A stretch of DNA of 55,896 bases, counting the filler, from Basidiobolus ranarum (taxonomy: Eukaryota): assembly GCA_040143965.1 (NCBI GenBank). It is 2 parts of 2 records of this genome, joined end to end, with 100 filler letters (N's around TTAATTAATTAA, not from the genome) between each part and the next. Parts side by side here need not be neighbours in the genome. Positions count along the whole stretch, not along the records: positions 1 to 28,008 come from JASJQH010000118.1; 1 more part is not named here. The stretch is one strand, 5' to 3'. Below the pieces are notes generated by a model. That model made no database searches. It saw only the letters and a list, made by a program, of their open reading frames with translations, and was not told where the DNA came from. Positions 2,989 through 28,108 of this stretch are shown in pieces; positions within the stretch are counted from its first letter, which is position 1, and each line of letters starts with the position of its first letter. The position numbers and the translations under genes were made by a program.

Positions 2989-3047
2989 GAAGGAAAACCC
3001 CCTTTATTAGTATGTTATGAAGGAAAACCCCCTTTATTAGTATGTTA
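2989..3047. repeat. 30-bp-period tandem duplication
   Basis: GAAGGAAAACCCCCTTTATTAGTATGTTA twice. Confidence 0.9.
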
Positions 3048-3064: not shown

Positions 3065-3331
3065 CTAATATTCACAATCAACGGAAGTAGCATATCCCAA
3101 TTTCTTCACACATCTTCTGAAGAGACCCTCATTTACAGTTGGAAGAGTGCAAATCAAGTGATTGCCTTGGAAGTTAGAGCCACCCATGTTTTGGAGACAA
3201 CATTCTTTGATTTTTGAGAAGCTGACCTTGAATCCGTAGACTGAACATACTGAATTGACATCATCGCCAACTACCTGGCCAGCCAAAAGTAATGCGGAAA
3301 GACAGAGAATACGTAAGCTTCGGATCATCAT
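3065..3331 (-). CDS. Small secreted cysteine-rich protein (88 aa, 6 Cys in mature part), possibly KP6-like fold
   Basis: Signal peptide MMIRSLRILCLSALLLAGQVVG; mature DDVNSVC...KECC...ICTL...LFRRC...VDCEY; probable 5'-UTR intron 3336-3399 (GTAAGT...CATAG) just before the ATG. Confidence 0.8.
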   Translation of the reverse strand: MMIRSLRILCLSALLLAGQVVGDDVNSVCSVYGFKVSFSKIKECCLQNMGGSNFQGNHLICTLPTVNEGLFRRCVKKLGYATSVDCEY

Positions 3332-4415: not shown

Positions 4416-4661
4416 CTAATCACGGCACTGAATAAGGGAGCATGATTTACAGTTGCTATAGTTATAGTAACCCTGGTACTTGCACTGCACATTCTGGTCG
4501 GTGCACTGAACAGTAGTTCCCGAAACATAGCAACTTCTGGTACCCTGAGAGTAGGCGCTTGCGCATTTCTGGGCAGCAGATCCACATTCAAGGGATATTT
4601 GGGTGGCACCAAGAGCCAGTCCGCAGAAGGTGATTGCAAGCATGACAGTTCTGATAAACAT
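4416..4661 (-). CDS. Small secreted 8-Cys protein, paralogue A (81 aa)
   Basis: Signal peptide MFIRTVMLAITFCGLALG; spacing C-x6-C-x10-C-x8-C-x6-C-x10-C-x2-C-x4-C; paralogue at 26456-26707. Confidence 0.9.
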   Translation of the reverse strand: MFIRTVMLAITFCGLALGATQISLECGSAAQKCASAYSQGTRSCYVSGTTVQCTDQNVQCKYQGYYNYSNCKSCSLIQCRD

Positions 4662-5318
4662 TTTGAGGATGCGATGCTACTCAGTAGATAAAATAAGGCG
4701 GAAGTCAGAATTGAATTGTAACATTCTCGAACTACTCCACGGCCTTTTATTACCAACTGAAGATAGAATAGAGGTTCGTCATACATCAATAGAGTATTAT
4801 ACAGTCATCAGATGGAAGTGTGAGTGAATAGTTAGTATTACCGTCAACTCTAGATGCTACCTTCTTTTGCTATTTTCCAGTTCATACGTTGATATAACTA
4901 TGGACATCAAATTCCTAAGAGAGCATATCTACATATTCTATGTTACTCCCGACGGTAGTGCACACCCATATTTCATTGTTGCATGTTTCATTGTTATTTA
5001 TTTGGATGGACACTGGAATTGGTTGTATTTATGGTTTGGTGAAGTGGTTATTAGCAATAGTTATTGCATGGTTGTATCAAATTATGATCCTTGTATATAG
5101 TTTACATATGGTGAGTATTGCTACAAAATTCGTAAATAACAGCAAAGTAGTACTAAGGGAATGTCTAGAAACAGTGTTTGTACTTTGGTTAATCATATGG
5201 TGTCATCGTAGTGTAACAAGAGTTGTGCTGATCATTACTATATTGAAACAAATATTCCCAGTTTTTGGGATTTCTTTCGCAGTGACTGGTAATTTGTAAG
5301 TGGCATAAAGTGGCAATT

Positions 5319-5394
5319 AGTGGAAGTTAGACTTTGATTTAGATATTATTGAATGATTTGGTATGCGATCTCTTTCCAAAGTCTAACTTCCACT
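5319..5394. repeat. Perfect 18-bp inverted repeat with 40-nt loop
   Basis: AGTGGAAGTTAGACTTTG (5319-5336) / CAAAGTCTAACTTCCACT (5377-5394). Confidence 0.9.
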
Positions 5395-5732
5395 TTGAAC
5401 ATGTTTTGGAACTACCATTTCTACTTCAGTTTGAATGTTTCGGATTTTAATTCTTAGTATATAGTTAGCGATATTGTATCTGGGATGAATGGAAAATTTT
5501 AAGGATAGACTGAAGAAATATGCGATTTGCACTCAAAGATTAATATTAATATATAGGTCGGAAATAAACCCAATACTCATACATGTACATTTCAAGGGTT
5601 TGAAGGATGTTGAGGAAATGGTTTATAAAGTTATAAAGAACTTAGAAGATGTGATCATATCTGAGCGTTGTGATGTAGCAAAAGTCAGGTGATCATTTAG
5701 ACTTACAAAACATTCAGAAGAAAGATAGTGAT

Positions 5733-6037
5733 TATTGCTGAAATAAGCATAAACTAAACACCTATATAGTCATACATAGCTTAGTGTTTGGTTACTCAAT
5801 ACTGAACTAAGATTACACCTCAAGAGGAATTTACTTAAAAGTCGGAAGATATATAGATTTTTCAAAGAAGCCCCAAACGTTGCACACATGTTTCTTAACA
5901 CATTCTACACATTTGTTTGTCTACATCTTGACAAAATTATAAATGTCAACTGAAGACTCAATAGATCAATAAGTGAAAGCCACCAATTTCTCTAATTCTC
6001 CAAACCACTTCCAACAGGCTCCCAAAATATTTTAACA
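5733..6037 (+). mobile_element. Internal fragment of the Tc1/mariner-like element at 54681-55627
   Basis: Colinear similarity to 54861-55177, e.g. CTAAACACCTATATAGTCAT and CCACCAATTTCTCTAATTCTCCAAACCACTTCCAACAGGCTCCCAAA. Confidence 0.85.
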
Positions 6038-6390
6038 GAAATATCTAAACTTCAAATTTAGTTGGCCTTTCATTACTAGTTTGAGCTTGCTGCAAATATT
6101 CCTTTATCAATAAATATTCAATTGTAGATACTAACAGAACTGCTTAGCTTAGAAATATTAATATTCTTAGAGATCTTGAATATAAGCGCTGATAGATTAA
6201 TATTAATTGTTGGAGTAAATGTCCAAACCCAACTGTACCAACTGTTCATGGGTGAGTAAATAGGGAATATCGACGAGATTTCATCAACAGTACTGCAACC
6301 AGTCGGATATCAAACTAGATTTAAGTTATTGCATATGATGATTTAATATACTACTCATGTAACCAATGGCTGAGAATCATGTATGAAAAA

Positions 6391-6459
6391 TATGACTATA
6401 ATATTGTCATGAAAGGTGTGACTATAATATTGTCATGAAAGGTGTGACTATAACATTGT
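6391..6459. repeat. 26-bp tandem repeat (~2.7 copies)
   Basis: TGTGACTATAATATTGTCATGAAAGG units. Confidence 0.9.
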
Positions 6460-6656
6460 TGCTTTGGTTATTATGCCGATTATAGTATATCCAAACCAAT
6501 AAGTAATTATGCTTATCGGATAAGAATCCTGCTTTTAACAATACAATTTAATGATTGTATAACTGCGCCAATAATGATGGCTTATTTGGAATGTTTCCTC
6601 TACGGGTTCCTAATGGGTTCCAAATAGGAGCTATGGAAGTACGGAAATAGTTACCA

Positions 6657-6685
6657 CTAGGGTTAGGGTTAGGATTAGGATTGAG
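6657..6685 (+). repeat. Short interstitial telomere-like (TTAGGG/TTAGGA) tract
   Basis: CTAGGGTTAGGGTTAGGATTAGGATTGAG ~140 bp upstream of ATG 6823. Confidence 0.6.
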
Positions 6686-6822
6686 CCTAAAATTATCTGT
6701 TACAGATGACACTTAGATGACAGAATTAGGGGAATTTTAGATTGGTTTCAGGGTAGGGTGTGCTTGAATCGATTAAGCATACTTCCTTCTTTGTTGTCCA
6801 TTCATATTCATTACAACCAGAT

Positions 6823-7563
6823 ATGTCCTCCTCCGAGGAACTTGACAACTTGACTTCAGTACAGGTTATATCTGATTCTAAGTTTAACACCATTAAAGAT
6901 GAAATTCAAACTCTAAAGCAACTCCAAGGACGTATCTTTTCCGATATTCGAGCCCAAAGAACCCCCGAAGCTTGGGGAGAAAGAGATACCCTTTTGGAGA
7001 GAATCTTTACTGGGATAACTCAGTCAGACACACTCATCCCTACTGGTAATGAGATGACTAGAGAGGCAAAAAAGGACCTCGTGAAGGAGTTACAAAGCTC
7101 ACAAATGCGAGCTGAAACGGACCTAAAAACCATGTTAGAGCAATGGGTGAGTTGAAACTGGTGATTTCTATCAAATTTCCTTCATTAAAAGTTCCATTTC
7201 TAGTATCAAACGCTCAAGCCAGATGCCTACGACACCCAAATATACGAAGCTGTTCGAGGAAATGATGAAATAATCGTTGGTAACCTACGTGCTCAATATG
7301 CCAACAATCCTAACGATTCTCCGGTTTTATTTCAACTCTCGTTAGCTCGACGAGAGCTACACAGTCTAGAGAAAAGTCTACAAATCATACGTGAACTCAG
7401 CGGCTCATTCTATCGTATGGACAAAGCTGAAAATAAGATCGAGGAATTCCAGGTGAAGCTCCCCTCGCGTACGAGAAGTAAACGTACCAAGATCATGTTT
7501 GTTGGAACTATTCTCATCACCTTGGGATTGCTCATTGGAGTGATTGTTACCCAAGTTCATTAA
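6823..7563 (+). CDS. Tail-anchored helical protein, divergent syntaxin/SNARE-like (2 exons; intron 7147-7203)
   Basis: Spliced ORF MSSSEELD...EQW|YQTLK...ARRELHSLEKSLQIIRELS...RTRSKRTK-IMFVGTILITLGLLIGVIVTQVH*; basic patch then C-terminal TM helix. Confidence 0.7.
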
Positions 7564-7890
7564 TAACATTAGAGAGTTGATGTACTTTCCCCTCTCTTCA
7601 TATGTAGCATACTTCACATCATGAACATTCATTTCATTTCCCCAACAATTGTGTATCTATAAATAAACATAAGAACCGAAGCAATAAAAGTAAAACAGTC
7701 TGGTCTTTGGTGGATTTATTTACGATATGAGCCATGGGATGTGCGTTCTGTACCAACGGAGCTCCACAGATAAAGTATGCAGGGGGAGGATGAAAGTGTA
7801 CGTTGTTTGACATTATGAGGAAGTCAGAAATTCCTCGTTCAAATCCGACCAAACCTCCAATAACTCGTTCATATAATACTGTTAGTGAAT

Positions 7891-9291
7891 TTAAAGGACA
7901 ACCACGAAAATCAAAAAGAAGAGGACAACAATGGCGAAAATCTTGATCATCAACCAACGGTTGGAGGAGATATGTGCATAGTATTTCAGTAGTTCCTTTT
8001 GTGCTCCGCTGACATTCATCTCGATATCGTCAACATTGGCGTCGATTCTACATAATAATGGCAAGTAATTCAGTATTAGACTGGGATATAGCTGGGATTG
8101 AATATCGCTTTAAACACCCACCGCTGAACCGCTTCTCTTTGCTCTGCAACCATGTGAGCTAATTGCTGAAAGATGCTTCCCAACTCAGCAATGGTAGATT
8201 CGATCGTTTCGATCGCTGTAGCTCTTTCGTCAATGTATGTATTCTAAGAAGTAATTGGTTAGTCATTAGGTTTGGAGATATTCAAGAGCCAGTACCACGT
8301 TGATTACCTGTTGCTCCACAAGTTGAAGCTGCTGAGCCGACTGCGTTGAAAAGTCTAAAGCAACGAATTCTCCATTTGTAGGATCCTCTTGTTTACGTTC
8401 AAAGTGAAATAGGGGAGAATCGGCTAATGGATAATACACTTCCAGTTAATAAGAAATCAACAATAGCACCGACATTATGGATACATACTAGAAGGACCAA
8501 TGGATAAAGGTGTTGAAGATTCCATAAATTGCTCTTTACGATCTTTGGTAGCTTTCATATTCTAAGAGGGAATATAATAAGCAACAATTAATTGATTTTT
8601 CAAGTGAGTAAACTAGAAGTATTTTAATCCCATACACTTGTACGCATCTCCAAAACGTCTTTAAAGCTAAGGGAAGCGTTCATCAATTTCGATTGTAACA
8701 TCACCACCACATTATTATTATGTTCTTCGATTTGTTTAGCATTTTTACGTCCACTTTGATTTTCTCGTACGGTTCTTTGTAAACTGGCCAGTTGTTGATT
8801 TAATCTGGCAATATCTTGCTTTATAACGTAAGTCAATTCCTAAAAGTACAATAAATTAGCATCATCTCTTCCATTTCATCAACGCCGTGACCTATTTAGA
8901 TATATAGGTGTCACGATATACAATATACCCACACTAATTTCCGTAGGTTTATCATCGAATAGTGTTTTACGCTTTGCCACTACGGAGAAATAAAGAAGAA
9001 AATTAAGTATACAAGCCAAGGTATGGACATGGGCATGGGTGTGAGTAGGGATAACAAAAAATAAACTTCTTTACATTTTGCCAATTTTTGTAACTTGGCC
9101 GCAGTAGTGTTGATGTCACGCCCGATGGCACCTGCTATATATGAGAACTCTGTCTTGCTGGTTATACCATTCTGCGTATCTTGACGAATTAGGGCGTTCT
9201 TCTCAGTTCCGTTACGATTAGGACGGGCAGACCTTGATTTTAAAGAATCAACTGCAGCTTGAAATTCGATGGTTCTATTTTTAATGGACAT
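7891..9291 (-). CDS. SED5: Syntaxin-5 / cis-Golgi Qa-SNARE (multi-exon)
   Basis: N-peptide MSIKNRTIEF; 'TAAKLQKLAK'; 'IETIESTIAELGSIFQQLAHMVAEQ'; C-terminal TM RWLMIKIFAIVVLFFLIFVVVL. Confidence 0.95.
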
Positions 9292-9886
9292 TGTGAAAGA
9301 GGGGGAGGCAATAAAGTATTATTATATTTGAAGTTCCAAAAAAAAATATGTCCAAGAGAGTTAGTGTAAGCTGTTTGAAGTTTGTGAGGTAAAGATGAAG
9401 GAAAATTATAAGATTTGCCGATTCGAGACACTAGACAATAATCATTAGGGCAATTTAGTGGAGTTGAGTATGCCAACATCACCAATATATGTGTTATATT
9501 TTGTTTGGACCGTTCATTTCATTTACCTATCTAAATGTAATATGGTCCACTTCATTCCAGAATGATTCCTTTGCAGGATAACAATTCCAGCAATTAAAAA
9601 CGCACTTGTCTCGCTGCCACATGCCTGCCAACTTGGATATTCTAAATAAACACTAGATTACCCGGATATTCATCTGCATATATACCAAGCGCTCATGGCG
9701 TAATGGTGTTGGATGAAATCTTCAAATGAGAAACAATTGAGAAAACGATGGCATCAACAGCCCTAAAATCTAGAGAAAACCAAGCTAAGCTACAATTCTA
9801 AAATCTAACCATAGAGCAGCAATAGATGAATATAAGGGTTTGCAAATAGACGAATATTTATTGATATTAAAACCGAACAAGGCTTT

Positions 9887-10369
9887 TTAGATCAAAGTTT
9901 CGTAGGCAATAGGGTAAATGGTGGTAGGAGCGTTGTCCTTAGTGGAGACGTGACGAGCATCACGAGGTTGAGCAGGGAGACGCTTAAGATGGAGAGTTTG
10001 GCCAGCAGCCTTGGCCTCCTTCTTCTTAAGGGCGTTCTCCTTGACACGACGCAAGAAGTCATCACGGCACTTGGAGTGCTTGATGTGCTCAACACGGATG
10101 TTAACACGCTTCTCCATGAAACGGTTACCAACACGCTTGTTGATAATGACACCGACAGAGGTCTTGGTAACGTTGTAAACAATACCAGTTCTACCGTGGT
10201 AGAACTTGTGGGGCATACCCTTTTGGATGGAAGCGTTAGCCTTGATATCGACGATATCACCAACCTTGTAGGTCTTCAAGTAAGTAGAGAGCTTGATGGG
10301 ACCATGCTTACGGAAGGACTGGGAGAACAGGTGGCGAGTACGAGCACGATAACCGAAGGAGTGAGGCAT
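9887..10369 (-). CDS. RPL21: 60S ribosomal protein L21 (eL21)
   Basis: MPHSFGYRARTR...KGMPHKFYHGRTG; strong codon bias; likely 5'-UTR intron 10379-10527. Confidence 0.98.
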   Translation of the reverse strand: MPHSFGYRARTRHLFSQSFRKHGPIKLSTYLKTYKVGDIVDIKANASIQKGMPHKFYHGRTGIVYNVTKTSVGVIINKRVGNRFMEKRVNIRVEHIKHSKCRDDFLRRVKENALKKKEAKAAGQTLHLKRLPAQPRDARHVSTKDNAPTTIYPIAYETLI

Positions 10370-10779
10370 TGTTGCTTACTAAGAGTATCAAATAAAGTTG
10401 AGTTTGATATTAGTAAAGTGATCTTCCATCAGGTCGTATTAAAGTAATGAATTTTTCTTCTCATTTTTTTTTCATGTACTTGTAAATTTTCTTCAAAATC
10501 ACTAATTTTAAAATGTAATATTCGTACCTACAAGAGTTTCCACTGAGCTCGTGAAGGAGAAAAGGAAGTTTCCGGGATAGACAGAGTGCTTACTTTTGTT
10601 GTTTCCAGGGCAGAAAAAAAAATCCTTTTAGCCAGGGGTCGGGCCATCTTCAGGGAGGCGGGTGATTGGTTGAAGCCGGGGCTTTCATGATTTTTTTGTC
10701 CAAACCTTTGGTCAGTTAAAAGTGTGTATTTTTGCTGTGAAACTTCCTTTCCTTTGGTCGGATTCAACAGCGGCACAAC
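10370..10779. promoter_or_regulatory. Bidirectional promoter region shared by RPL21 and RPS9
   Basis: Head-to-head start codons ~410 bp apart; poly(A) tract and GC-rich patch at ~10614-10682. Confidence 0.7.
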
Positions 10780-11587
10780 ATGGCACCCCCAAGAAATTGT
10801 ATTCCTTAAGAACAGTATGTTTTTATTATTATTCGTTCATTTCTACAGTGATGTATCCATATCTGCAATAGATGTGTGATCACTGCTGTTATTGTTTGAT
10901 TTGATTTCATTGTTCTAAGGAAGAGACACCTAGCATATTCTCTGGGCATGAACGAATAACTAGGTCAACCTTGCTTAAAGTCAACGGAAAGTTGGTTCGC
11001 AAAGAACCCAAACTTTACCATAAATTTTTTAACTTTTAGGCTCCAAGACCTACAAGGTCCCCAGACGTCCCTTCGAGAAGGAGCGTATGGATCAAGAGTT
11101 GAAGATCATTGGTGAATATGGACTTCGTAACAAGCGTGAAATTTGGAGAATTGGATACACTTTGTCCAACATCCGTCGTGCTGCTCGTGAGCTTCTCACC
11201 TTAGATGTCAAGGATACCCGTCGTCTTTTCGAAGGTAATGCTCTTATTCGCCGTCTTATTCGTATCGGTGTCTTGGATGAGAGCAAGGCCAAGCTCGATT
11301 ACGTACTTGGTTTGAAGGTTGAAGATTTCTTGGAGCGTCGTCTCCAAACCCAAGTCTTCAAGCTCGGTTTGGCCAAGTCTATCCATCACGCCCGTGTCCT
11401 TATCAAGCAAAGACACATCCGTGTTGGTAAGCAAGTAGTTGACATTCCATCATTCGTTGTTCGTTTGGAATCCCAAAAGCATATTGACTTCGCCTTGACC
11501 TCTCCCTATGGTGGTGGTCGCCCCGGTCGCGTCAAGAGAAAGAGAATGGCCTCTGCTGGTGGTGATGCCGAAGAGGATGAGGAATAA
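10780..11587 (+). CDS. RPS9: 40S ribosomal protein S9 (uS4); intron 10799-11039
   Basis: Spliced [43 protein letters not shown]...SIHHARVLI...[11 protein letters not shown]. Confidence 0.98.
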
Positions 11588-12051
11588 ACGTTGAACCATT
11601 GACTTTCTTCCCTTTGACAGCTACCCAGTTTGTCATTAAAATAAACAAGCACCATATCTGATCTTACTTTGAACATATAATAATATACGCTAGATATTAG
11701 CCCCTCGTAATAAACACAAGGCACATGCAACTAGTAACACTACTTAATATCCAGCCATCGGATGGATTCACGTCAAAGCTGATGGATGCTTCTCATCCAA
11801 ACCATGAATCCATCATTTTTGTATCCAAGTTCTACCTCATTGGTCAATACGGGTTAGGTGGATGTGGATTGATGAAATGATTGTTACAAACATAATACAC
11901 AATCGATTAACTATGTCTCTAAGTTACTATTTCATTGCAAAATAAACTAAGGATATTAATTCTGTTTAGTTTAATTCGTCTACATGTGACCTACATAATT
12001 TACAATTGTTTTATATGGTAAAAGGCTTCAGAACACAAGGCAGGTGACCGA

Positions 12052-13030
12052 TCATTTGCGTCTGCGCTTGGTATCTCTACCTTCACAAGCATCGTCAATC
12101 GAGGACGATTCAACGCTCTAAAAAAGAACTGGGGGGGTTAGATCCTGGGATTATGAAAGCAATAGATATGTAGACGAGCCTGACCTTGCTTCTTCTCTCC
12201 CCGCGAACTTTCTGGATCTTTTCGACTACTCGGAGTAACTCCTCTTCCAACATTTTGAGTTCATCTTTCTTGGCGATCAAGATAGCTGCAGGCTAGAGTG
12301 ATAGGGGATTCTATTTAGTCATGGTACTACAATCAATATAAAAAATTCATTTCTCACATCTTCAGGCTTTGGAAGTTCGATGGTTTTCCATTCTATATCA
12401 GGGATTTCATATCTAAACAAAAAGGAATATAAGTCATGTGTACTACAAGAGAAACGGTTTCTTTGAAAGCTTACAGTCGCTTATGCTCCATTAATCTTCG
12501 CTTAATCTCTTCCCGCGTGAGTTTTCCACCAGTATTAACGATACAATTGTTTTTTCTTTTGATACCCGGACCTTGTTTCTTAGAGTTAATCTCACCAATA
12601 ACGAATGGGTCCAAGTGTAAACCTGCAAATTCTAAAGAGGGAGGGGGAATTAATCGCTTGGTTTGTAAAACCAAAAAAAAATTGAACTTCTTAGATACCT
12701 GCTGTACTTTGTTGACCCAACATACGTTGAAGTTGTAGGTTCATTTGTGCGATGGTTTTTCCAAATAAACATTGGGATTCAATAATCTTGGCCCAATTAC
12801 CAATTCCAAACTTCATAACGGCTTTACGTAAGATGTGTACTTCTGGCTCGGTCCAACCTTAATAAATATACTTTTAGATGAAGTTTCAACTAGTATGAAA
12901 ATCAAAATAAAGTTTGAACATTGTAAATACCTGGAGAGAGGGTACAATTCCACAAACTGGCTGAATCGTTGGAACGTAACACATTACGTGCTCCTACAGG
13001 CATAGAGCGAGGTTTATAAACATCCGTCAT
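12052..13030 (-). CDS. p1 (AMTP1)-like Myb/HTH subunit of the MTA1c/AMT1 DNA 6mA methyltransferase complex (6 exons)
   Basis: Spliced: NDSASLWNCTLSPGWTEPEVHILRKAVMKFGIGNWAKIIESQCLFGKTIAQMNLQLQRMLGQQSTAEFAGLHLD...RKNNCIVNTGGKLTREE; matches ciliate p1 motifs (SLWNxTLSPGW, FGIGxW, QRxLGQQS, RKNNCIxNTG) as I recall them; C-terminal NLS-like KRRRK. Confidence 0.88.
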
Positions 13031-13504
13031 GATAAATAGGCAAAGAAAAGAAGCTTTTAGGTGGAGTGAGTAAAAGTAGTAGGAAAATAGGCAGAATCGA
13101 TGTCAGAGTTGGGTATAGGTCAGTTTCCTTAGAGATATAGAAATATAGAATATTTATTAAGTCGCGTTCATCCTGAGACTGGTGATTTTTTTCTAAGCAT
13201 GCTATCAAGCCCTTTGTTTGTTTACTGTTGGCAAGAATTACTAGAAATCAATCAATCTGTAGACTGCGGCTACCAATCAACTGTATAAATCTAAACGCGT
13301 ATTTAATCATCTTTCGCTAGCCGGGTTTGCAATAGAATCAAGAGTGATATAGAGTTTTTCTATATTTGGGAATAGTGGTTTTTTTTCTTTTGATTTGTTT
13401 CTTTCATATTCTTTATGATTAATAACGCTTTAATACTAAATAAGTAGACTAGTTACTCTTGGAAGTACTTAATTTCGTTTACTATCAACTGTACTCTTAG
13501 CAAA

Positions 13505-14957
13505 ATGGAAGACCAATTTGTAGAAGTACGTTTATTTAATATCTTTACTGTCTGAAGCAATATATCTAATCATTTTAACTTTCAACTTGCTAGCTGACTT
13601 CTTTCTTGAACGATCCTAAGGCTGAGGTACCAAGACGACTTTTTACAAAATCTTTTCTTTTGCAAAGCTAACCCACTAATTGTCTATCAGGTTCGTCAAC
13701 TAGCTGTAAAGCATGTGTTGAGTTTCACTACAAAAGACTCGGGATATCTTCCTTTATTCAAAAAATATGCAACTCAAGTTATTGGTGATTTGAAGAAACT
13801 TTGCAGAGAGCCCACGGTCAGTACCTTTTACTCTAGTCACTGTATAGATAATACTAAAAGCACCATTACTGATGAGAAACTTTCCATTACCTAGCTTATT
13901 GCTCATGATGCGCTATCTGCATTAATCAATCTTTCAGGTGACGCAGAGATTATTGAGCACCTTGACGATATGGGTTTCATTAAGCTATTGGTCTTAATCA
14001 TCATTGTAAGTGTAGTGCTCATAGTATTTGGTTTATTATAAAACTTCTAAACTGGAGTATGTATTCCTCAAGATTCCCAAATCAATTCTTGCTGACGTTG
14101 CCTGTATGCTTCTTGCCAACATCTCCAAATCCGAGTCGGTGTGTGTTAAACTTATGGAGGCCACCAGTACTCCGGTTGATTCCTTGACCAAATCTCATAG
14201 AGTAATCGATCAACTTGCCGAGGTATTTGTCAAAGGCTACGAACGTCAATACAACAGCAACGCCGAGTACCACTTTCTCGCTAGTGTGTTTGCCAACATC
14301 ACAACTGTATGTAAAATAGAGTGCTTACATTTCTGGAAGTGTACTAAAATTTACTTTATAGATTCCCCAAGGTCGTAGCTTCTTCGTTGAAAAGGCCGAA
14401 GACAATGAAGCACCTCTTACCAAAATCACTTGCTTCACCGAAGACAGCCATGTTATTCGTAGAGGAGGAGTTATCTCTACCATCAAGTATGATATTCATT
14501 GGATTTTTGTATGAAGACCTTCGAGGCTAACTTTTAATGATATAGGAATTGTTGCTTTGCCACTCAAAGCCATTCTGATCTTTTAGATGAAGACCAAATC
14601 AACATTCTTCCCTCGATTCTTCTTCCATTGTGTGGTCCCGAAGAATTCGACCTTGATGATATGGATGGCATGCCAGAAGAAGTTCAACTCTTACCTGAAA
14701 CCAAGAAAAGAGAAGCTGATCCTCATCTTCGTAGCACCCTACTCGAAGCTCTAGTGCTATTGACCACTACCCGTGAAGGACGTGAGATTCTTCGTGCTAA
14801 GAAGGTCTACCCAATTGTGCGTGAAGTCCATTTAGCTGAAGATGACGAAGAAATCCAAGGAGTTGCCGATCGAATTGTTCAAATGCTTATGCGAGATGAA
14901 TTACCTGAAGAGCCCAAGATTGTTGAAGATGAAGATGATCAAATTGTAGAGATGTAA
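13505..14957 (+). CDS. HGH1: Hgh1/FAM203 armadillo-repeat eEF2 chaperone (multi-exon)
   Basis: 'CMLLANISK', 'YHFLASVFANIT', 'IRRGGVISTIKNCCF', 'KKREADP...LLEALVLLTTTREGREILR..KVYPIVRE'. Confidence 0.93.
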
Positions 14958-15240
14958 AAATCTCGAGAATTTTTGTTAATTTAATGTACAACCTTTTAAA
15001 TTTCTTCATTTTATATCCCTTGAAATGTCTCAATAAAAATATAGATATCATATGAATTCAAGGAATATTTGGTTCATTTAGATGTGATTTTTATAGAATT
15101 CAAATCCATTTCTAAGTTTAATTAAATCTATTAGAAAATTCCGAATTCGTTTAGTATTGATAAAAAAACATTCCCAATACACATTGTCTGAGTGCTGTAC
15201 ATTAGAGTGAACAATACTGAGTCTCTTTTGAGTATACAAA

Positions 15241-16865: not shown

Positions 16866-17156
16866 AAACCCATTCAACACACCATATCCGATTTTCTATC
16901 AGTTGAATCTCGGCCAATTTCAAGAGCTGGACTTGTGCCACTCTTGCTTTTAAGCCAGATTTGGAAAGCTTCCAGCCTTATTATTCATAATTTGACTGTT
17001 TACCTAGCACAAATTTAATCATGATGCTAATTTTTATTGTTCCCGAAATTTTTACGAGAATTACGAGGATTAATAATGCCATTGAAACAGGCCCTCTTTA
17101 CGTCAAGATTATTACCAGTTACTTCTCTTGCAAGCACCTCTCTCTAGTCGTTCACC

Positions 17157-19262
17157 ATGTATAGAGGAACCCCAAAAATCCTAGCTCATTTGAGTAACAA
17201 ATCCCTCTTCTCTACCCATATTGGTCGGAGTTTGGTGACATGCACAAGTTCATTTCGTACGTTTCATTCACAAAGTAATAGTCTTCAAGCTATGCCTTTG
17301 AATGAGAATTCCCCCGAAAAAGGAAAACTTGAAAAGCAATATGATATTGTAATCCTAGGTGGTGGAATAGCGGGCTCTTCATTAGCCTGTGCTCTAGGTA
17401 TGGATTCTGATATGAAGTGGACCGAGAGGTTTTATTAAAACACAAACGCTAACTCAATGTGATACGTTTATGTAGCTGGTGCTCCAGAACTCCGTGATAA
17501 GAAAATAGCCTTGCTAGATGCCTTTGACCTTGGAAAAGTCCGTGACTGGGTCCCTCCCGAGAAAGGATTTATGAACCGTGTAGTATCCTTAACCCCCAGC
17601 TCCGTCAAGTTTCTTCGCAGTAAGGAATCTTCTTAATGACTAATACACTTGATAAGCTTTGTACAAACTAAATTATTATCGCAGAAATTGGCGCCTGGGA
17701 GAAAGTCCATGTAGAGCGCTCCATGCCCTATCAACATATGGAGGTACCACTTTGGAAACTCTACCCTGAATGAAAATATAACATTACTAACTCTGGATTA
17801 TTTGAATAGGTTTGGGATGGACTAGGTGAAGGACGAGTTCAATTCTCTACTGATATGCTTAACTTCCCCACCGAAGCCATGGCTTGGATTATTGAGAACA
17901 ATAACATCCAATCTGCCGTTCTTCAGAAACTTGAGCAGCACGAAAATGTAATTGATGTGATTGATAGCAGTAAAGTGCAAGACATCTTCCGCACCGAACC
18001 ATCAGAGTTGTCTACCGATGATCAAGTGGACGTTTCGGAATGGCCAGTTGTTAAACTAGAGAACGGCACTTTGTTGAGAACTAGGTTATTGGTAAGTTTA
18101 TAACACTCACATTTGAAATATCCTCATGATTGTTGAATTTTCTAACACAAAATAAGATCGGTGCTGATGGTGTTAACTCCCCAGTTCGCAAATTTGCTCA
18201 AATCGAGTCCTATGGTTGGGACTATGACCAGCACGGTGTTGTGGCCACCTTACAACATCATCCCGATATCGAAGAACCATCTGACATGGTGAACACCACT
18301 GCTTGGCAGAGGTTCCTTCCAACTGGACCCATCGCAATGCTCCCGGTAGGTTGACTTATATACTGACTCGACACAACACGCCAAATGAATTTACCATTGC
18401 ATACAGCTTGACTCCAACCACTCCTCATTGGTATGGTCGGTACCACCCAAACTTGCTGTCAAGCTCAAGGCATGTCCCCCAGAATTATTCTCTCAGCTTG
18501 TCAATGCAGCTTTTCGATTAGCCCCGGCTGATCTTGACTATCTTTATACTCAAATCAGCGAGGATGGACAATCCCTTTCCGACATTTCTGGAGAAATCGA
18601 GTGGAGAGAAGAGCAATCCGGACAGGTAGCTGTGCACCGTAACTTACCACCCACAGTCTTCAATGTTCAAGACAAGAGCCGTGCCTCGTTCCCCTTTAGA
18701 CTAAGAAATGCTGAAAGATATGTGGAAGATCGCTTGGCTTTGGTTGGGTAAGTCGATAGTCTTGACGTCGCAGTGTTCCGACTTTATCTAATGGAATTTT
18801 GATCATTAGTGATGCTGCACATGCTACGCATCCTCTTGCTGGCCAAGGTCTGAACTATGGTTTGGGCGACGTTGAATCGATGTCTCAAGTGATCATCAAT
18901 GCCGTAAGAAGTGGACAAGATATTGGTAGGTGGACCGTTGGTGGACCATCGATAGATGTGTATTGATGTAGATTGATTCTAGGAAACATCAATGTCCTCA
19001 CGCAATATTCCTCTGAAAGATTCTTCCCTAATGCCGCCATGCTTGGTGCAGTAGACAAGTTGAAACGACTCTTTGCCTTCAACTCTGCGCCTATTGTTTG
19101 GGCCAGATCATTCGGATTAGACAGCACCAATGCATTGGGTCCACTTAAGGTTGTTTGATTAGTGGATCTCGTTTGAATGATATTCTCATTTTACTAAGGT
19201 TTTCCTTGTAGACACAAATTATCAAGTATGCCATGGGACTGGAAACCTCCGTGAAACCCTGA
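17157..19262 (+). CDS. COQ6: Ubiquinone biosynthesis FAD monooxygenase (multi-exon)
   Basis: Mitochondrial presequence; YDIVILGGGIAG; IGADGVNSPVR; AWQRFLPTGPIAMLP; GDAAHATHPLAGQGLNYG. Confidence 0.95.
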
Positions 19263-19559
19263 ATCCACATCAATTACGAAACGCAAGTGAATGTCCACCG
19301 CTTATATTCCCATCACTCTCTATCGGTTACATTATGAGTCGAAATAAGAATACAATCTTCAAACAATGGTGGATCCGGTAATTTTGTTCTAATTTTGTCA
19401 CAATCAACAATACAATACGAACCAACAATCGTCATGGAACCAAATAAATATCGCGTAAATATCCACTAAAAAATTGGCTGAAAGTGGTGCAAGATAATAC
19501 CTGAAAGTAGAGCGATAAATTAGCTGAAATTAACTGAATGTGGACCGATGTTGGAAGTG

Positions 19560-19745
19560 AAAATAGGCGGGATCGTGTCACTCAATAGATGACTGATTGG
19601 TGAGTAAATAATAGCATATATTCATCTCATCAGTTCCGAAAGAAGCTAGTTCTATCTGAAATGATGGAATTGTGGACGACGCGTTACAATGTAAGATTAG
19701 AACGCGTGGATGAACCCGCGTTTTCGTGATCACAGCCAATTGGAT
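19560..19745 (+). promoter_or_regulatory. Cluster of G1/S-type motifs upstream of the HMG/YABBY gene
   Basis: ACGCGT (MCB) at 19679 and 19702; CCGCGT at 19716; TTTCGTG (reverse SCB, CACGAAA) at 19722; GGCGGGA at 19566; CCAAT at 19736. Confidence 0.5.
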
Positions 19746-19913
19746 GTTCAACTTAAATGGAGAGTAACATTTCGATTCTGTGAAAATTCAAGCAGCATAA
19801 TTTCAGTATAAAAAGTAATATTATTCCAGATCTTCATTAGTGATCCTCTCCTCTCTTTCATTTCATTTTCTCAAGCACCCACGCCCCCTCCCATACTAAT
19901 CTAATATACTATA

Positions 19914-20168
19914 ATGGCCAAAGAAAAGTCCACCAAAAGAACCAGTGGTAAGAAGCTCTCCCCATACAACAAGTTCATGAAAACTGAACTTCCCAAAGTA
20001 AAAGCTGAGGATCCATCCATAGCTCACAAAGACGCCTTCAAGGTGGTTGCCGGTAGATGGAAGAACGCACCTGAGAATCCTGCCAATAAGAAGGACTCAA
20101 AGGAAGTGAAGGAAGTCAAGGAAACTAAAGAGGCTAAAGAATCCAAACCTGTTGATGAAGTGAAATAA
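19914..20168 (+). CDS. Small YABBY-type HMG-box DNA-binding protein (84 aa)
   Basis: KKLSPYNKFMKTELPKVKAEDPSIAHKDAFKVVAGRWKNAPENP plus a KE-rich repetitive tail. Confidence 0.9.
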   Translation: MAKEKSTKRTSGKKLSPYNKFMKTELPKVKAEDPSIAHKDAFKVVAGRWKNAPENPANKKDSKEVKEVKETKEAKESKPVDEVK

Positions 20169-20496
20169 GCCTGAAGCCTTAATTCTTACAAACGATAATA
20201 ACTTGCTACGTTTTGTTTTTCTTGTGTATAGAACTCACTCCACTTTGATTTGATGTGTATATCAGTTGTCATTTTCTTTGATTTTTCTGTGAAACTTTAA
20301 TAAAAAGAAATCCTATAATCATTCCTTCCTTTTCGTTAATTTCCATAATCTGCATTTTATTTATGAATATTCAGCTAACACTTCAATCAATAGAATTTTC
20401 TCGATTGGGGGATGGTTAGGTTAAGTGTTGAATGGTGATTTGTGTTAGACTATATATATGTCGCCATATGTGTGATGTGACTTTTTTCTTTGTTAG

Positions 20497-21259
20497 CTAT
20501 AACCAATAAAACACCCATTGGAAGCCAATAGTTACCAACACCAGAGAGAGATGTTGCGTGCTGAAAAGTCCAAGAATAACCGCATTACTTTCAGTAGGAC
20601 TGTTTGGCTCAGCTTCTGATGATGCAGAAGCGGGTGCAGGAGAAGCGGGAGCGGGGGCTTTGCTGATTCCTTTGGTACCCGCGCTGCTGGTAGAAGATCG
20701 AGACTGAGCTGCAGATGGGTTTGTTGTTAAACCCGAGGGAGACTTGGGGTTAGTAGAGATAGCAGGGATAGCGGGAGTACTGCTAATTGTATTGGGCAAC
20801 ATGGGTGGAGATAAATCAGGCTTGCTACCACCACTAAGGACGATATTAAAAAATGGGGAATATGCAGGAAGAACAGTACCACCAGTGGCTCTTATCGAGT
20901 ATTGTCCTGTTGGAAGATTGGCGGGGATTGCCCACTCAAATCTTCCAGTCGCCGAAGGAATATTGCTTGCTATCAATCCCACTACTTGTAACGTGACTGC
21001 TGGTCCATTCATCAATGTTAGACTGATGGTAGCGGGCATGGGTGTGTTATCGCTATTATCGGTCCTAAGGTGAAAGAGTGCATTGTTAATATGAAGAGTA
21101 GGAATGAATAGAACATAGTGATCTTTACCAGGTTACTAATTGTGTAGTTCCCACATCCCACATGGCCAGAATAGGCGCAGTAAAGGCTAAAGAGGCTTCA
21201 ACTAATATTTGTTTGAAGAAAAAGACCGAAATAAAAGCCACTTTAGTAATGTAGACCAT
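20497..21259 (-). CDS. Ser/Thr/Pro-rich GPI-anchored cell-surface protein with Kre9/Knh1-like N-terminal beta domain (1 intron)
   Basis: Signal peptide MVYITKVAFISVFFF; 'VTW...ISLTLMNGP...GRFEWAIPANLPTGQYSIR...YSPFFNI'; S/T/P/A stalk; hydrophobic C-terminus after SNA. Confidence 0.85.
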
Positions 21260-21985
21260 GATGATTTAGGAAGTGGTAGTGGGTTATTCAGAACCTTTTC
21301 ACGCTTTAAATAGAAGTCAAGTGTGAGTTTCGATATGATACACTCAATGATAGGATGAACTCTCAACCCATCTGACCGAGACATTGATATTGATTCCTTG
21401 GACTGTTTCGACTCTTTGCAGTAGAATGGTCATAATAGCTATAGCTAGAGGAGGCAAATGTTGCATTCATCTAACTTTGGATACATCCATACACCCGTGC
21501 ACCCATACATCAGTATAACAAGCCTTAATGAATTGATGGGTCATTAAGCTACGATTATTATTATTTCTATGATTGCTATTTTTACGGAACGTCTGTTAAA
21601 CGAATTAAGCGATTTCAATGATCATTTTGGTGGTTTGGTGTGATGTGGTTGATTTTTCTCTGTTGAAGAGTAGATTTGTAGTTCAACATTATCTGGTCCA
21701 AAGAAATAAAGTGTCTGCTGCAAATGTCGTCATCCATGTTTGTTGACATCCAAGTTGTACACCCAACAATAGATTAAATGTATATGGTACGCACTTGTTA
21801 GTGGGAATCTAGCTTACTTTTAATTCCAGAGATATTGTTGGTATCACCCTACGCAAGTGTCACGTTTTTGATTGATTTCAAGAGAAATGATTTATATGGG
21901 CCGATAGTAACTGCAAATTGAACTACCCTGCTCAGATACCAACACTCTAGTTACAGCTTCTTGATAATTTCTTCCACAGTTAAAC

Positions 21986-22469
21986 ATGCTCCCTGCAAAG
22001 CAAAACAAAGTCGATTTGAGTGTGAGTGCTTTTACCAAATCTTCTATTTCCATGAGTAGATTATTCCTAATGCTTTTGTCAACTCAATTTTTTTTAGAAA
22101 CTTAGTGAAGAAGAAAAGAAGATCTTTAAAATGTACGGTCGTTTACCAAGTGGTAAAGATCTCGTAAATCGCAAACTTAAGGTATGTTAAACTATCAGAA
22201 AGCATCATCTGGTATTTGTATGACTTAATGATGATTATTAGGATCGTAAATATTTTGACTCTGGAGATTACGCAATGCAAAAGGCCGGTAAAACTTCAGC
22301 CACTGAAGTAGGTTTGATTCATCCAAGTCCCGATACAATTCCTCATCCACAAAGTCCATCTGTCGTTCCAATCACCACCACAACGCAAAGCCATTCACCT
22401 AAAGAGAGTCTATCACAACTAGCTAAAGATAGTAGAGATGACATTCCTGCTGAATTTGAATCAGTATGA
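21986..22469 (+). CDS. IGO1: Endosulfine/ARPP19 (Igo1-like) PP2A-B55 inhibitor (3 exons)
   Basis: KMYGRLPS...DRKYFDSGDYAMQKAG, the Greatwall/Rim15 phosphorylation motif. Confidence 0.93.
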
Positions 22470-22581
22470 GCGGACGAGAGGTTACTTTAGTATTAATCAA
22501 ATGAATACCAGCAATAACCAATTCAAGTTATATTATTTATAAATTGAAACCTCCTGTTTTTACTTATACATATATAATACG

Positions 22582-22604
22582 CACACACACACACACACAC
22601 ACAC
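22582..22604. repeat. (CA)n microsatellite
   Basis: CACACA... run. Confidence 0.9.
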
Positions 22605-23741
22605 TACAAGTATGAAGCTCACTCGTAAACATCCACTTGGGCTGAGCTACAGTTCAGTGTCTTGGGATGTTGCCTCTTCGCTTTTGCCCTCGCTTAATTT
22701 TGTGCTTCTCAATTCCATTACCATGTACGCATTTTGCAATAAATGTTTACACAATTCTTTTCAAATCCCAAGAGTCATAAGGGGGTGGAGAGGAATGAGT
22801 CGGCCCTATATATATTCGCCAGCAACTAATATAAACTTGAGCATATATTTACGACTCAGTGATCGTATCTAAATAAGTTCACAGCAATTTTAGCATCTAT
22901 ATACGCACATTATTTAACCAATAATGTGATAATTAACGGGAAGGTGGTTGAACAAATGCTCCGCTTTTCCCTCATCACAATAGTAAATAGGATTTTTTTC
23001 AGGTCAAAAGTCCCAGAATTATTATATTCGGAAATTTACTCTTTATTCTACAAGCATACTTACAGAAACAAAGAGAATGTACAATTGAGATATGGTGATA
23101 TTTCTATAGATGTTGGTATGTTGGAGATACTAGCATGTAACATTTCTACTTCAAGGCTATTACCAGGGTTATACTGAGTTGAATAAAGTCCCTCTAGAAA
23201 TCCAAATTCAATCCACCATTAAGCAACTTTACGCACGATTAACCAATGCATTTCAATTACTGCTAAATCCTCGTCTAAAGCATAGCTAGCTTGGACCGGT
23301 TTTCTATACTTGGAAGTCATAGTAACGACTATCGTGATTGCGACTGCGCCGTGACCGTGACTGCAAAGATACACATGTCATTGGATCGGCCTTATTCCCT
23401 AATCTTTACCAATCGTTGAATCTTACTGGACCAAAGAAAGGCACACTTCTAGAATGCGATCTCGATACTGTATCCCCCACACTAACGAATGCGTTGGTTG
23501 TCGTTAATATTTCCTAAAAAAAAATTTGATTTGTTAGACGAAATTAAATTTTTACTTTCTCTGATCAGCTTTAGAGATCGAAAATGTTGATAATTCCTGG
23601 AGCGCGACTAGTGTCTTCTATATTCCCTTGTTGATTAAACCCGAAGTAATTCTGTTTAAGCTTCCGGAAGGCTGCCACATTCTGTGATACCTCACTCACC
23701 TCGGATTTTCACTCAACAGAGACTGTAGTTCACAAACAAAT

Positions 23742-25053
23742 ATGCTTCAAGAAAATGTACAAACTGGTCTCACTACCCAACCGTCAGTTGTGGTTAGGAA
23801 ACTAATTCAACCTTTGACTGCACTTGAACCAAAAACGAAACAAGCCTGGTTGCATTTCATCGCTGGAGGGTATGTTGTTTTCTCTAGTCACACTATTACT
23901 ACAAATCCATAATAACTTGTTGCCTGTATATAGTACCGGCGGTATGATTGGTGCTTCCTTAACTTGTCCCTTGGACGTGGTCAAAACTAGACTACAGGTA
24001 CTTGAGTCTATTAAGGTTATTACTCGTACATATTCTTAACTAACACTTAACCTCTATAGTCTTCGCTATATAGGCCAACTCCTTCCCATTATTCCCACTC
24101 ACATAGATCTCTTGTCTCAACCATGGGAAGACATGTAGTGGAGACTCTTGGACTCTTAAAGTGAGACTAACCTTGCCAATATACTGCACCTAATCACGAT
24201 TTACTAACTCAGACCTTCATCTTGCTAGATCCATCAGATATCACGAGGGCATACGAGGCTTGTTTCAAGGCCTTGGTCCTAGTCTTGTAGGTGTTGTCCC
24301 AGCAAGAGCAATCAATTTTGCCGCCTACGGAAATGGGAAGCGGATACTTACGGAAATGAACGGGGGAAAGGAATCTTCTATTATTCACTTGACAGCAGCA
24401 GCAACCGCTGGTATCACCACCGCCACCATCACCAGTCCAATATGGCTAGTTAAAACACGTATGCAGTTGCAAGCTATGAATACTACCTCCTCTATGCGTT
24501 ATAGAAGTAGCTTGGATTGCGTGAGTCAGGTGATTAAAACTGAGGGAGTTAGAGGGCTGTATAGAGGCGTTAGTGCTTCATATCTAGGCGTCGCTGAAGG
24601 AACGTTACAATGGGTAGTTTACGAAAAATTCAAGTCTTTAATCCACGAGCGTCGCCGTATGAGATATGGAAGCGATTATGGCACAGTGAATAGAACATCA
24701 ATAGGTAAGTCACAATCAAGCTTGTTCTGGGATATCATTTACTTACTAGATTTTCATTAATAGACTGGTTGGAATATTTCGCCGCTGCTGGCACTGCGAA
24801 GCTTCTCGCCGCTCTTGTGACCTATCCTCATGAGGTGATCCGTACTAGAATGAGACAAGGCCCATCTGAGAACGGTCTTCACAAATACACCGGTCTGCGT
24901 CAATGCCTTAGTCTAATACTTAAAGAGGAAGGGTTCCTCGCACTTTACAGTGGAATGACCGCTCATCTGATGAGAACTGTGCCCAACGCGGCAATCATGT
25001 TCTTCTGTTATGAAGCGATCATGCATTCATTTGGTCAGAAAAAGGGGGAGTAA
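23742..25053 (+). CDS. RIM2: Mitochondrial pyrimidine nucleotide carrier (SLC25A33/36 family, multi-exon)
   Basis: WLHFIAGG; TCPLDVVKTRLQ; GVVPARAINF; SPIWLVKTRMQLQ; TYPHEVIRTRMRQ; HLMRTVPNAAIMF. Confidence 0.93.
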
Positions 25054-25136
25054 ATTATTTCAGTTCACAAGCATAGAGTTATTAGAATTCATCCATAGCA
25101 TTCTTGGAACATTCATCCTTCATAAATTTTGAAACA

Positions 25137-25210
25137 TCTTTTTCGTTCCCTCCTCTCCTCTCCTCTCTCCTTCCGTTCCTTTCCCCTCCCTCCCCCTCTC
25201 CGTTTCCGTG
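25137..25210 (+). repeat. Polypyrimidine (CT-rich) tract downstream of RIM2
   Basis: TTCCCTCCTCTCCTCTCCTCTCTCCTTCCGTTCCTTTCCCCTCCCTCCCCCTCTCC. Confidence 0.8.
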
Positions 25211-25630
25211 ATCTGAGGTTATTCCATATATCTTCAATTTAATATATATTCCGTGGTATTCAACATAGCTTTACCTATTTCTAAATATATCCAATATTAT
25301 GCACCCAGTTCCCATATTTAATTATGGATATGAATAGCCACATTGCCTAGTAATGAAAGTCCAATCACCTTTTCTAAAAAGAGAGAATTCGGAAGTTAGT
25401 ATTAGACCCAATTAGAGTGATTCAAAGTTTTGCAGTTAATATCCCATTGAATTGTACCTATTCCCCAAATGAAGAATAATAACTAACAATTTGTATTAGT
25501 ATGGCGTTGCAGTAGTTAAGGAAACTATTGGGAATATAGGTTTGGTTTTTGATATCCAGTTATTTATCAATATATAACTACTATATAAGTCAACAAAGGA
25601 TATTTACATAATACATGGTTTACTTGGATA

Positions 25631-25963
25631 CTGTTAAAGTATTTTGGGAGCCTGTTGGAAGTGGTTTGAAGAATTAGAGAAATTGGTGGTTTTCACTTAT
25701 TGATTTATGGAGTAGAAAGTTGACATTTATAGTTTTGTCAAGATGTAAATAAACCAACATGTAGAATGTGTTAAGGCAGGTCTCAGGAACATGTGTGCAA
25801 AGTTTGCGGCTTCTAGCACAAGTTTGAAAAAATCTATATATCTTCAAACTTCTAAGTAAATTCCTCATGAGAATAATGGGTAACATCTTAGTTCAATATA
25901 AGATAACTAAATACTAAGCTATATATGACTATATAGGTGTTTAGGCAATGCTAATTTCAACAG
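25631..25963 (-). mobile_element. Internal fragment (inverted) of the Tc1/mariner-like element
   Basis: Reverse complement aligns with 5733-6037 and 54861-55177 (TTTGGGAGCCTGTTGGAAGTGGTTTG...ATGACTATATAGGTGTTTAG). Confidence 0.85.
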
Positions 25964-26455
25964 ATACTTGGTTCAAATAGGCATGAGTTTGGAAGTAAAA
26001 AAAAACTCTTAAATATTCCCATGGTTCACAGTACTAAATAGCAGCAGTATTAAAGAGGTTCACCTATCAAATTGATGATGACTCCTACAGCGAAAGTAAT
26101 GTTAGGTAAGTATTCAATAGGCTACTCTGAAGAAAAGCAAATGACTACTTGTAACAAAAAATTGAATAGCTGAATTACAAGATTATAAACTCAGTGCTCT
26201 GTTTGTAAATATATATCAAATATCTGGAGGCTGGTGAGAAATACCTTCAAAATAATTCAAGAAAGGGGTTTAAATCAAAACATTAAATTGAGTAACGAGA
26301 TTTGAAAGTAGATATTGTTGATAGAAGGCTAAAACAGCCACTTGAAGAATTCTTTATTAAACTTTGAGTACTAACAGGTATTTGCATGTAGAAATAATAA
26401 AAAATCCCTTCTGGAATGCTTTAATCCATATAGCAGTTTAGAAATTATACAATTT

Positions 26456-26707
26456 CTAATAGTTGGAGCAAGTAATGAGGGAGCAAGATTTGCAGTTATC
26501 ATAGTTTTTCCAGCCCTGGTATTGGCACTGTACGTTCTGGTCCCTGCAGCTAACAACGCTGCCGCTCACTGAGCAGCTTCTAGTACCAATAGAGATATTT
26601 TTCGAGCACTTTTGAGCGGAAGATCCACAGTCAATGGAGAATTCGGAACCTAAACCTAGAGCTAATCCACAGAAGGCGAAGGCAAGGGCAACAGTTCTGA
26701 TAAACAT
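26456..26707 (-). CDS. Small secreted 8-Cys protein, paralogue B (83 aa)
   Basis: MFIRTVALAFAFCGLALG signal peptide; same Cys spacing as 4416-4661; 54 of 81 aligned residues identical by hand count. Confidence 0.9.
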   Translation of the reverse strand: MFIRTVALAFAFCGLALGLGSEFSIDCGSSAQKCSKNISIGTRSCSVSGSVVSCRDQNVQCQYQGWKNYDNCKSCSLITCSNY

Positions 26708-28008: not shown

Positions 28009-28108
28009 NNNNNNNNNNNNNNNNNNNNNNNNNNNNNNNNNNNNNNNNNNNNTTAATTAATTAANNNNNNNNNNNNNNNNNNNNNNNNNNNNNNNNNNNN
28101 NNNNNNNN
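28009..28108. other. Assembly gap with artificial TTAATTAATTAA linker
   Basis: N-run / TTAATTAATTAA (28053-28064) / N-run, 100 nt in total. Confidence 0.97.

Follow-up and report, generated by a model that had tools for sequence, protein, structure and literature searches.

We analyzed a 55,896-nucleotide stretch of DNA, filler included (hereafter the window), from the fungus Basidiobolus ranarum (NCBI GenBank assembly GCA_040143965.1), focusing on two small genes within it whose products carry eight invariant cysteines. By sequence comparison, these genes belong to a real, undescribed and Basidiobolus-restricted family of small, cysteine-rich proteins with predicted secretion. In one paralogue elsewhere in the genome, the same domain forms the head of a long stalk that very probably ends in the chitin-binding module CBM19. 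From this architecture and the other evidence given below we propose, tentatively and with somewhat less than even confidence, that the domain is a small, secreted and disulfide-stapled module that binds a conserved extracellular ligand, a carbohydrate of the cell surface being the most plausible one, and that it works both as a free protein and while tethered to the chitin wall. The window consists of two contigs, C118 and C119, joined at a run of N with a short central palindrome (28009-28109); no linkage is implied across the join, and both eight-cysteine genes lie on C118.

An eight-cysteine family in Basidiobolus

The two genes and their upstream boxes are as follows.

4416..4661, minus strand: eight-cysteine miniprotein gene 1; 81 amino acids, intronless; leader of about 18 amino acids plus a 63-amino-acid mature domain
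4744..4750, minus strand: TATA-like ATAAAAG box of gene 1, 89 nucleotides 5' of the ATG
26456..26707, minus strand: eight-cysteine miniprotein gene 2; 83 amino acids
26769..26775, minus strand: TATA-like ATAAAAG box of gene 2, 68 nucleotides 5' of the ATG

Open reading frames were found where the initial annotation had placed two intronless paralogues, and the two-thirds identity it had estimated is borne out (66% between the proteins). One database record for gene 2 uses an upstream ATG as the start, giving 101 amino acids; we favor the start at 26707, to which the TATA-like box and the alignment point. Both proteins open with a hydrophobic leader of about 18 residues (grand average of hydropathy (GRAVY), 1.8), our signal peptide call being based on hydrophobicity and alignment. 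The mature cysteine spacing, 6-10-8-6-10-2-4, is invariant as had been claimed and is kept in all 6 complete domains of the B. ranarum genome, defining a domain of about 63 residues that would be secreted and held by four disulfides. The segments GTRSC and DQNVQC.YQG, described as conserved, are so in the window genes and vary in the wider family, where GSRKC, DPLVDC and AQG occur. An internal duplication, suggested by the repeated C-x6-C-x10-C unit, finds no backing beyond the repeated cysteine spacing itself. Outside the cysteines, the two units agree at 0-1 of 16 positions in all 8 proteins compared, no better than shuffles (p = 0.41-0.98), and their DNA is identical at 8-14 of 48 positions in the 4 genes tested.

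The initial annotation had proposed counting copies across the genome. A protein search placed 14 matches at 13 loci, to which two further queries added none. The 13 comprise five complete free genes (L001, L002, L003, L004 and L006), one stalked copy (L007), three copies cut by contig ends (L005, L013 and L014) and four broken copies (L008, L009, L010 and L012). Since L005 overlaps L013 and L014 by 39 identical bases, the loci represent about 12 genes. L008 has a frameshift mid-domain, L010 lacks both its start and its 3' half, L012 has a long terminal repeat (LTR) inserted just past the first mature cysteine, and L009 has lost cysteines, contains stop codons and merges into LTR repeat remnants. 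The L009 copy, on contig C7917, is annotated in public databases as a fusion to an upstream cupin fragment (P0015), which is probably an annotation artefact.

Members of the family are old, constrained protein-coding genes under purifying selection. The ratio of nonsynonymous to synonymous divergence (dN/dS) over the mature regions, a measure the initial annotation had also suggested, spans 0.00-0.28 across the 15 unsaturated pairs out of 21; we rejected diversifying selection across the whole mature domain. For instance, the mature parts of L002 and L003 are set apart by 16 synonymous and 0 nonsynonymous changes, and the mature regions of gene 1 and gene 2 are separated by a dS of 1.6 and a dN of 0.33. 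An ATAAAAG box lies 55-89 nucleotides 5' of the ATG in all 6 free open-frame copies having upstream DNA, and also at L012, compared with 64 of 4116 background windows; it was not found upstream of the stalked gene or of three broken copies.

Flanks are common to several family copies, and no copy has a poly-A tract (the longest A run is 3-7 nucleotides). These short A runs, together with the retained promoter box, led us to reject a retrocopy origin, and the shared flanks without a poly-A tract indicate that the copies arose through DNA-level duplication, by which they would have spread together with their promoters. Copies on other contigs have unlike neighbors, and their match to the window flanks is limited to the gene, the promoter region and the LTR repeat; a search for a duplicate of the gene 2 neighborhood turned up only distant carrier paralogues. 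A tree of nine proteins contains a single well-supported group (L001, L002 and L003) and is otherwise mostly unresolved. Overall, the family shows birth and death of gene copies.

Within the databases searched, the family is confined to Basidiobolus. The three candidates from a word-based protein search were a B. ranarum hypothetical protein, identical in sequence to the copy on contig C665 of the genome analyzed, a B. meristosporus hypothetical protein and window gene 2. Cluster look-ups added two B. meristosporus records with consecutive accessions, bringing that species to three proteins, and the proteins of the two species are 76-80% identical. A profile of seven mature domains gave five matches among 1.84 billion representatives, of which four are Basidiobolus proteins. 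We dropped the remaining one (P0016; E = 6e-4), which is a repeat protein of Ig/cadherin type whose cysteine pattern does not fit. Scans of contigs for the cysteine pattern confirmed 0 of 120 pattern matches in metagenomes, 0 of 38 in viruses and 0 of 119 in prokaryotes, and therefore no donor for horizontal transfer was seen. The claim of a lineage-specific, undescribed family is thereby upheld, and no Pfam family matched above chance. Precursors and mature domains gave only sub-threshold Pfam hits, such as Prokineticin (E = 0.14) and Connexin43 (E = 0.08-0.13), which we judged to be chance, as we did a single weak NCBIfam hit in 1 of 7 members and the best hits of PDB sequence searches (E = 0.69, to prokineticin Bv8, and 2.5). 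PHROGs gave no match to the family and the ESM Atlas nothing for the mature domain; for P0005, the best ESM Atlas scores (0.78, virus hypothetical proteins; 0.75, AFP) lie beneath the chance level. A literature search on Basidiobolus secreted, cysteine-rich and antimicrobial proteins, CBM19 and copia, covering subscription journals in small part, found no description of the family, and six accession numbers yielded no mention in a paper. Zygomycete small secreted proteins have been clustered (PMC9391592), and the B. meristosporus proteins may sit in the supplements of that study as an unnamed orthogroup.

The stalked paralogue and candidate functions

One family member, on contig C1378, has an open frame of 324 codons comprising a leader, the eight-cysteine domain and a stalk that reaches the contig end. 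Its domain is 64% identical to that of gene 1 and is not followed by a stop after the last cysteine. The stalk exceeds 230 residues, is rich in Thr, Glu, Ser and Pro (79% of residues) and derives from an 81-bp tandem unit. The only other contig matching the stalk DNA (among 2 candidates) is C2693, where a frame open at the 5' contig edge begins with the same 81-bp unit and closes in CBM19 (PF03427; 27 bits against a cut-off of 20.1, and 22.4 bits in the genome search). Very probably, C1378 and C2693 hold one gene that was split by the assembler at the tandem repeat and that ends in CBM19. Its divergently oriented partner on C1378 is a gene that matches the Dicty_CAR receptor family (L102; 1948-3114, plus strand).

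This cassette is in wide use in the B. ranarum genome, where the C2693 tail has 69 matches. CBM19 itself has 48, of which 28 are above the cut-off, and apart from the separate C2693 tail these 48 include no locus of the eight-cysteine family. The 69 tail matches represent a large family of secreted, Ser/Thr-rich proteins with a CBM19 C-terminus (for example, L085-L095 and L110-L138). Among tail-family loci with a visible start, some are headless, three (L090, L111 and L121) have an eight-cysteine head of other spacing and one (L126) has a DPBB head. The other eight-cysteine head is without a Pfam match, and we take its spacing to be CFEM-like. Judged by these architectures, the eight-cysteine domain of our family would occupy the slot used elsewhere by other presumed binding or wall-acting heads. 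A signal, a folded ligand-binding head, a Ser/Thr stalk and a wall anchor are given as the typical adhesin layout (PMC6023273), and Basidiobolus is described as having many chitinases (bioRxiv 10.1101/2020.06.09.137125).

Like CBM19-tailed wall proteins and fungal adhesins, the candidate C1378/C2693 gene would combine a leader, a head, a stalk and a chitin-binding tail. Yeast Cts1, for instance, consists of GH18, a Ser/Thr linker and CBM19. The head differs from those of such proteins in being a 63-residue orphan domain, neither an enzyme nor a known lectin, and most members of our family are stalkless. A second parallel is with CFEM, an eight-cysteine domain with a CxC-containing spacing that is likewise used free (Csa2) and atop a Ser/Thr wall stalk (Rbt5 and Pga7). 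We rejected membership in CFEM (PF05730) given that our family has no Pfam hit and no CxC in its spacing; in addition, it is predicted to be beta rather than helical, and its anchor is apparently CBM19 rather than glycosylphosphatidylinositol. Lastly, the spacing of the first six cysteines (6-10-8-6-10) is similar to that of CBM19/CBM14 (6-10/11-9-5-8), whereas our family has two extra cysteines and lacks the terminal C-D-W motif. An hhalign comparison of the eight-cysteine domain with the genome's CBM19 domains scored 9.1 (probability 0.2%), and 131 of 150 column shuffles scored as high; we rejected a divergent CBM19.

The binding-module proposal draws on the stalk architecture, purifying selection, a hydrophilic and weakly basic surface (mature domain GRAVY -0.15 to -0.50, net charge +0.8 to +2.7, isoelectric point 7.7-8.5) and a conserved QG[W/Y]xNY aromatic patch. 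This patch, seen in the alignment, is a putative binding face, and the domain would be used both free and, through the stalk ending in CBM19, tethered to the chitin wall. Such binding could still serve antagonism, for example toward a competitor's wall, and would then overlap with an antimicrobial role rather than exclude it. Several points weigh against our proposal. The two parts of the stalked gene come from different contigs, and their join is one that we infer; the stalked form is present at only 1 of 13 loci, and the fusion may be a one-off. A longer form of the domain was neither scored among 277 candidates, a weak negative, nor seen in the 1.84 billion representatives, and no longer homologue of the C2693 tail was scored among 920 candidates (again a weak negative). 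Given the lack of CBM19 profile likeness described above, carbohydrate binding rests on the architecture and on two or three aromatic residues. Moreover, antimicrobials and toxins, too, typically form multi-copy families of small, cysteine-rich secreted proteins that include pseudogenes.

The proteins may instead be secreted antimicrobial or antagonistic peptides whose targets are bacteria of the gut or litter, fungi or small invertebrates. They would then act like AFP/PAF without being members, the stalked copy being a side branch or a form of surface display. We regard this as possible and somewhat doubtful. Their size, eight cysteines, leader peptide, strong TATA-like box and gene turnover (four broken copies among 13 loci) fit such a role, as do a second cysteine-rich secreted family adjoining gene 1 and the AFP cluster at 0.75 in the feature search, though shuffled proteins often score higher than this. 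We also assume the first six cysteines to be spaced somewhat like those of PAF-type proteins. The genus is reported to live among gut bacteria (PMC10964425). According to a 2026 survey of three known groups of small, cysteine-rich antifungal proteins, the AFP, bubble protein and NFAP2 families are defined by gamma-cores, a pre-pro layout and basic character: AFP/PAF by an N-terminal dextromeric gamma-core (GXC-X3-9-C), bubble proteins by two levomeric-1 gamma-cores (C-X3-9-CXG), and NFAP2 by three disulfides and a C-terminal dextromeric gamma-core (PMC13525654). The 486 members in that survey are from Ascomycota or Basidiomycota only, and Basidiobolus is absent from its main text.

Our family resembles these groups in being small, secreted, cysteine-rich and of similar length, and probably beta-rich according to low-confidence models. 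Unlike them, it carries none of the three gamma-core forms in any of the 9 sequences (7 of 7 B. ranarum domains and 2 of 2 B. meristosporus proteins), it has no propeptide with a Kex2-like LXXR site, as the first mature cysteine follows the leader by 7-8 residues with no Arg between, it is only weakly basic and it has no Pfam match. PF11402 gave no hit at E <= 10 for precursors or mature domains; its 0 genome matches at E <= 10 are weak evidence, since the controls of the same search were also silent. AFP/PAF membership was rejected on gamma-core, propeptide and profile, bubble protein on the absence of levomeric-1 gamma-cores from the sequences, and NFAP2 on the family's eight cysteines and lack of GXC. 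Thus, the family lies outside the three groups, yet may work like them. Purifying rather than diversifying selection, weak charge, the missing gamma-core and the stalked paralogue make a classical cationic peptide or an arms-race effector somewhat less likely.

Hydrophobins have eight cysteines, including two adjacent CC pairs, and a hydrophobic face. Our family has no CC pair, its mature domain is hydrophilic and no Pfam hydrophobin match was obtained at E <= 10, in agreement with the initial annotation, which had set these proteins apart from AFP/PAF, bubble protein and hydrophobins. The same features make it improbable that the family forms a surface coat or adhesive of spores or hyphae, whether in a hydrophobin-like role or as part of the capilliconidium glue, even though small, conserved proteins with eight cysteines and a leader peptide would fit, the stalked form suits a wall role and capilliconidia are described as having adhesive tips (PMC10964425). 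In a further alternative, to which we give little weight, the secreted proteins would protect the fungus in the gut by inhibiting hydrolases (proteases, chitinases) of the host or of microbes. Such a role is common among small disulfide-rich proteins, conserved surface residues would suit a conserved target and wall display would shield chitin, but no sequence match to any inhibitor family was found.

AFP/PAF proteins form a five-stranded beta-barrel; structure prediction for our family was of low confidence. Two AlphaFold2 runs, with 7 and 10 sequences, reached predicted local distance difference test scores (pLDDT) of 45.9 and 44.8. In both models, a short meander of three strands surrounds cysteines three and four, and fold searches with them (best Z 2.0, E 4.6 and Z 3.1) indicated neither a known nor a new fold. 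A new, Basidiobolus-only disulfide-stapled fold that recognizes a microbial or insect surface glycan, deployed both in diffusible form and on a chitin-anchored mucin stalk, is a speculative and rather unlikely possibility.

The repeat beside the genes

The initial annotation had noted fragments of one Tc1-like element about 0.5-1.1 kb from each gene and proposed that the family was carried or spread by this element. The repeat is present at those distances (494 and 1,075 bp), but its sequence identifies it as a Ty1/copia LTR, with three copies in the window.

5736..6038, plus strand: degraded Ty1/copia solo LTR, 1,075 bp upstream of gene 1; identity to the copy at 25632 about 80%; no clean target-site duplication
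25632..25962, minus strand: Ty1/copia solo LTR; 494 bp downstream of gene 2; TG...CA ends and an intact 5-bp target-site duplication, GTATC
54864..55177, plus strand: third LTR copy, lying within an inverted-repeat element (54679-55629) of the other contig

The repeat measures 315-350 bp, has TG...CA ends and is flanked by a 5-bp target-site duplication in 11 of 15 full-length copies (at most one mismatch), including the copy beside gene 2; the other four are one 5' LTR, one 3' LTR and two degraded copies. Tc1/mariner elements are marked by terminal inverted repeats and a TA target duplication, and the TG...CA ends and 5-bp duplications rule out this identity. Three of 30 RVT_2 loci contain the repeat; at L161 the RNase H end and a purine tract immediately precede it, a junction that L162 also matches. 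The ends, target-site duplication and RVT_2/RNase H/purine-tract context match features given for fungal copia elements (PMC5445492), and we found no difference from Ty1/copia solo LTRs in ends, length, duplication or pol context. No eight-cysteine gene was found on the contig holding the third copy. The element in which that copy is nested has inverted ends of 136 nucleotides that are 86% complementary, and contigs C6976 and C11 carry related ends.

The repeat is abundant, with 3,663 candidates in the genome and 17 copies in 248,865 bp (40 sampled stretches), corresponding to about 4,400 genome-wide. The copia load in general is heavy (2,755 RVT_2 candidates, with stop codons in most of the 150 scored). 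An LTR lies within 1.5 kb of 5 of the 13 family loci compared with 11% of random positions (p = 0.010), which favors carriage of the family by the adjoining element. However, against AT-matched positions (context below 38% GC, 25% with an LTR) the same count gives p = 0.21; 10 of the 13 loci have such a context, and the background from the first 20 sampled stretches alone is 20%. Enrichment near other copies is likewise not seen: without the two window genes, an LTR is near 3 of 11 loci (p = 0.12 or 0.55), and two of these three are insertions into genes. For the second secreted family the count within 1.5 kb is 1 of 8 (Fisher p = 0.34). Two of the five LTR-associated loci are coding-sequence insertions, and the LTR lies upstream of gene 1 and downstream of gene 2, its side and orientation varying among loci. 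The 25632 copy retains an intact target-site duplication and therefore inserted on its own; it is 88-94% like other copies, whereas the window genes differ by a dS of about 1.6. We conclude that the LTR, abundant in AT-rich DNA, is a bystander that sometimes breaks copies and shows no sign of having moved the family. The idea of spread by the repeat, now very improbable, is already largely refuted.

Neighboring genes and biological meaning

Gene 1 does not sit alone in an AT-rich island, as had been suggested: a member of a second secreted family lies 1.1 kb away, and GC content around the genes is 35-36%, compared with 38.5% in the sampled genome. This neighbor and two further open reading frames of the window are as follows.

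3065..3331, minus strand: second secreted family member; 88 amino acids, 6 mature cysteines with spacing 14-0-15-12-11
859-1452, minus strand: open reading frame of 197 codons, with no Pfam match above the cut-off
40941-42902, plus strand: GH81 glucanase gene of 653 uninterrupted codons, the listed frame having no obvious hydrophobic leader

The second family has 8 loci in the genome (2 broken; L025-L033) and no Pfam match, and its CC-containing pattern presumably recalls KP6-like fold proteins. Short tandem duplications of 26-54 nucleotides, exact or near-exact, occur in the intergenic DNA flanking gene 1 (2019-2126, 2572-2679, 2989-3047 and 6383-6460).

As it stands, the eight-cysteine family is one of many lineage-specific small secreted families in fungal genomes, and the link to a transposon, which had seemed to set it apart, fails. 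Among the new clues, the stalked paralogue is the most useful. Making and assaying a conserved orphan domain of 63 residues costs little, and the use of this domain both free and on a stalk offers a testable indication of function. Should it prove to be a new fold or a new antimicrobial, it would be a useful find. Basidiobolus is described as a core, well-connected member of herptile gut communities (PMC12400927). If the domain is a new, glycan-recognizing fold, it would represent an antimicrobial or adhesion family from Zoopagomycota outside the AFP, bubble protein and NFAP2 groups, and would provide a direct handle on how the fungus meets bacteria in amphibian and reptile guts.

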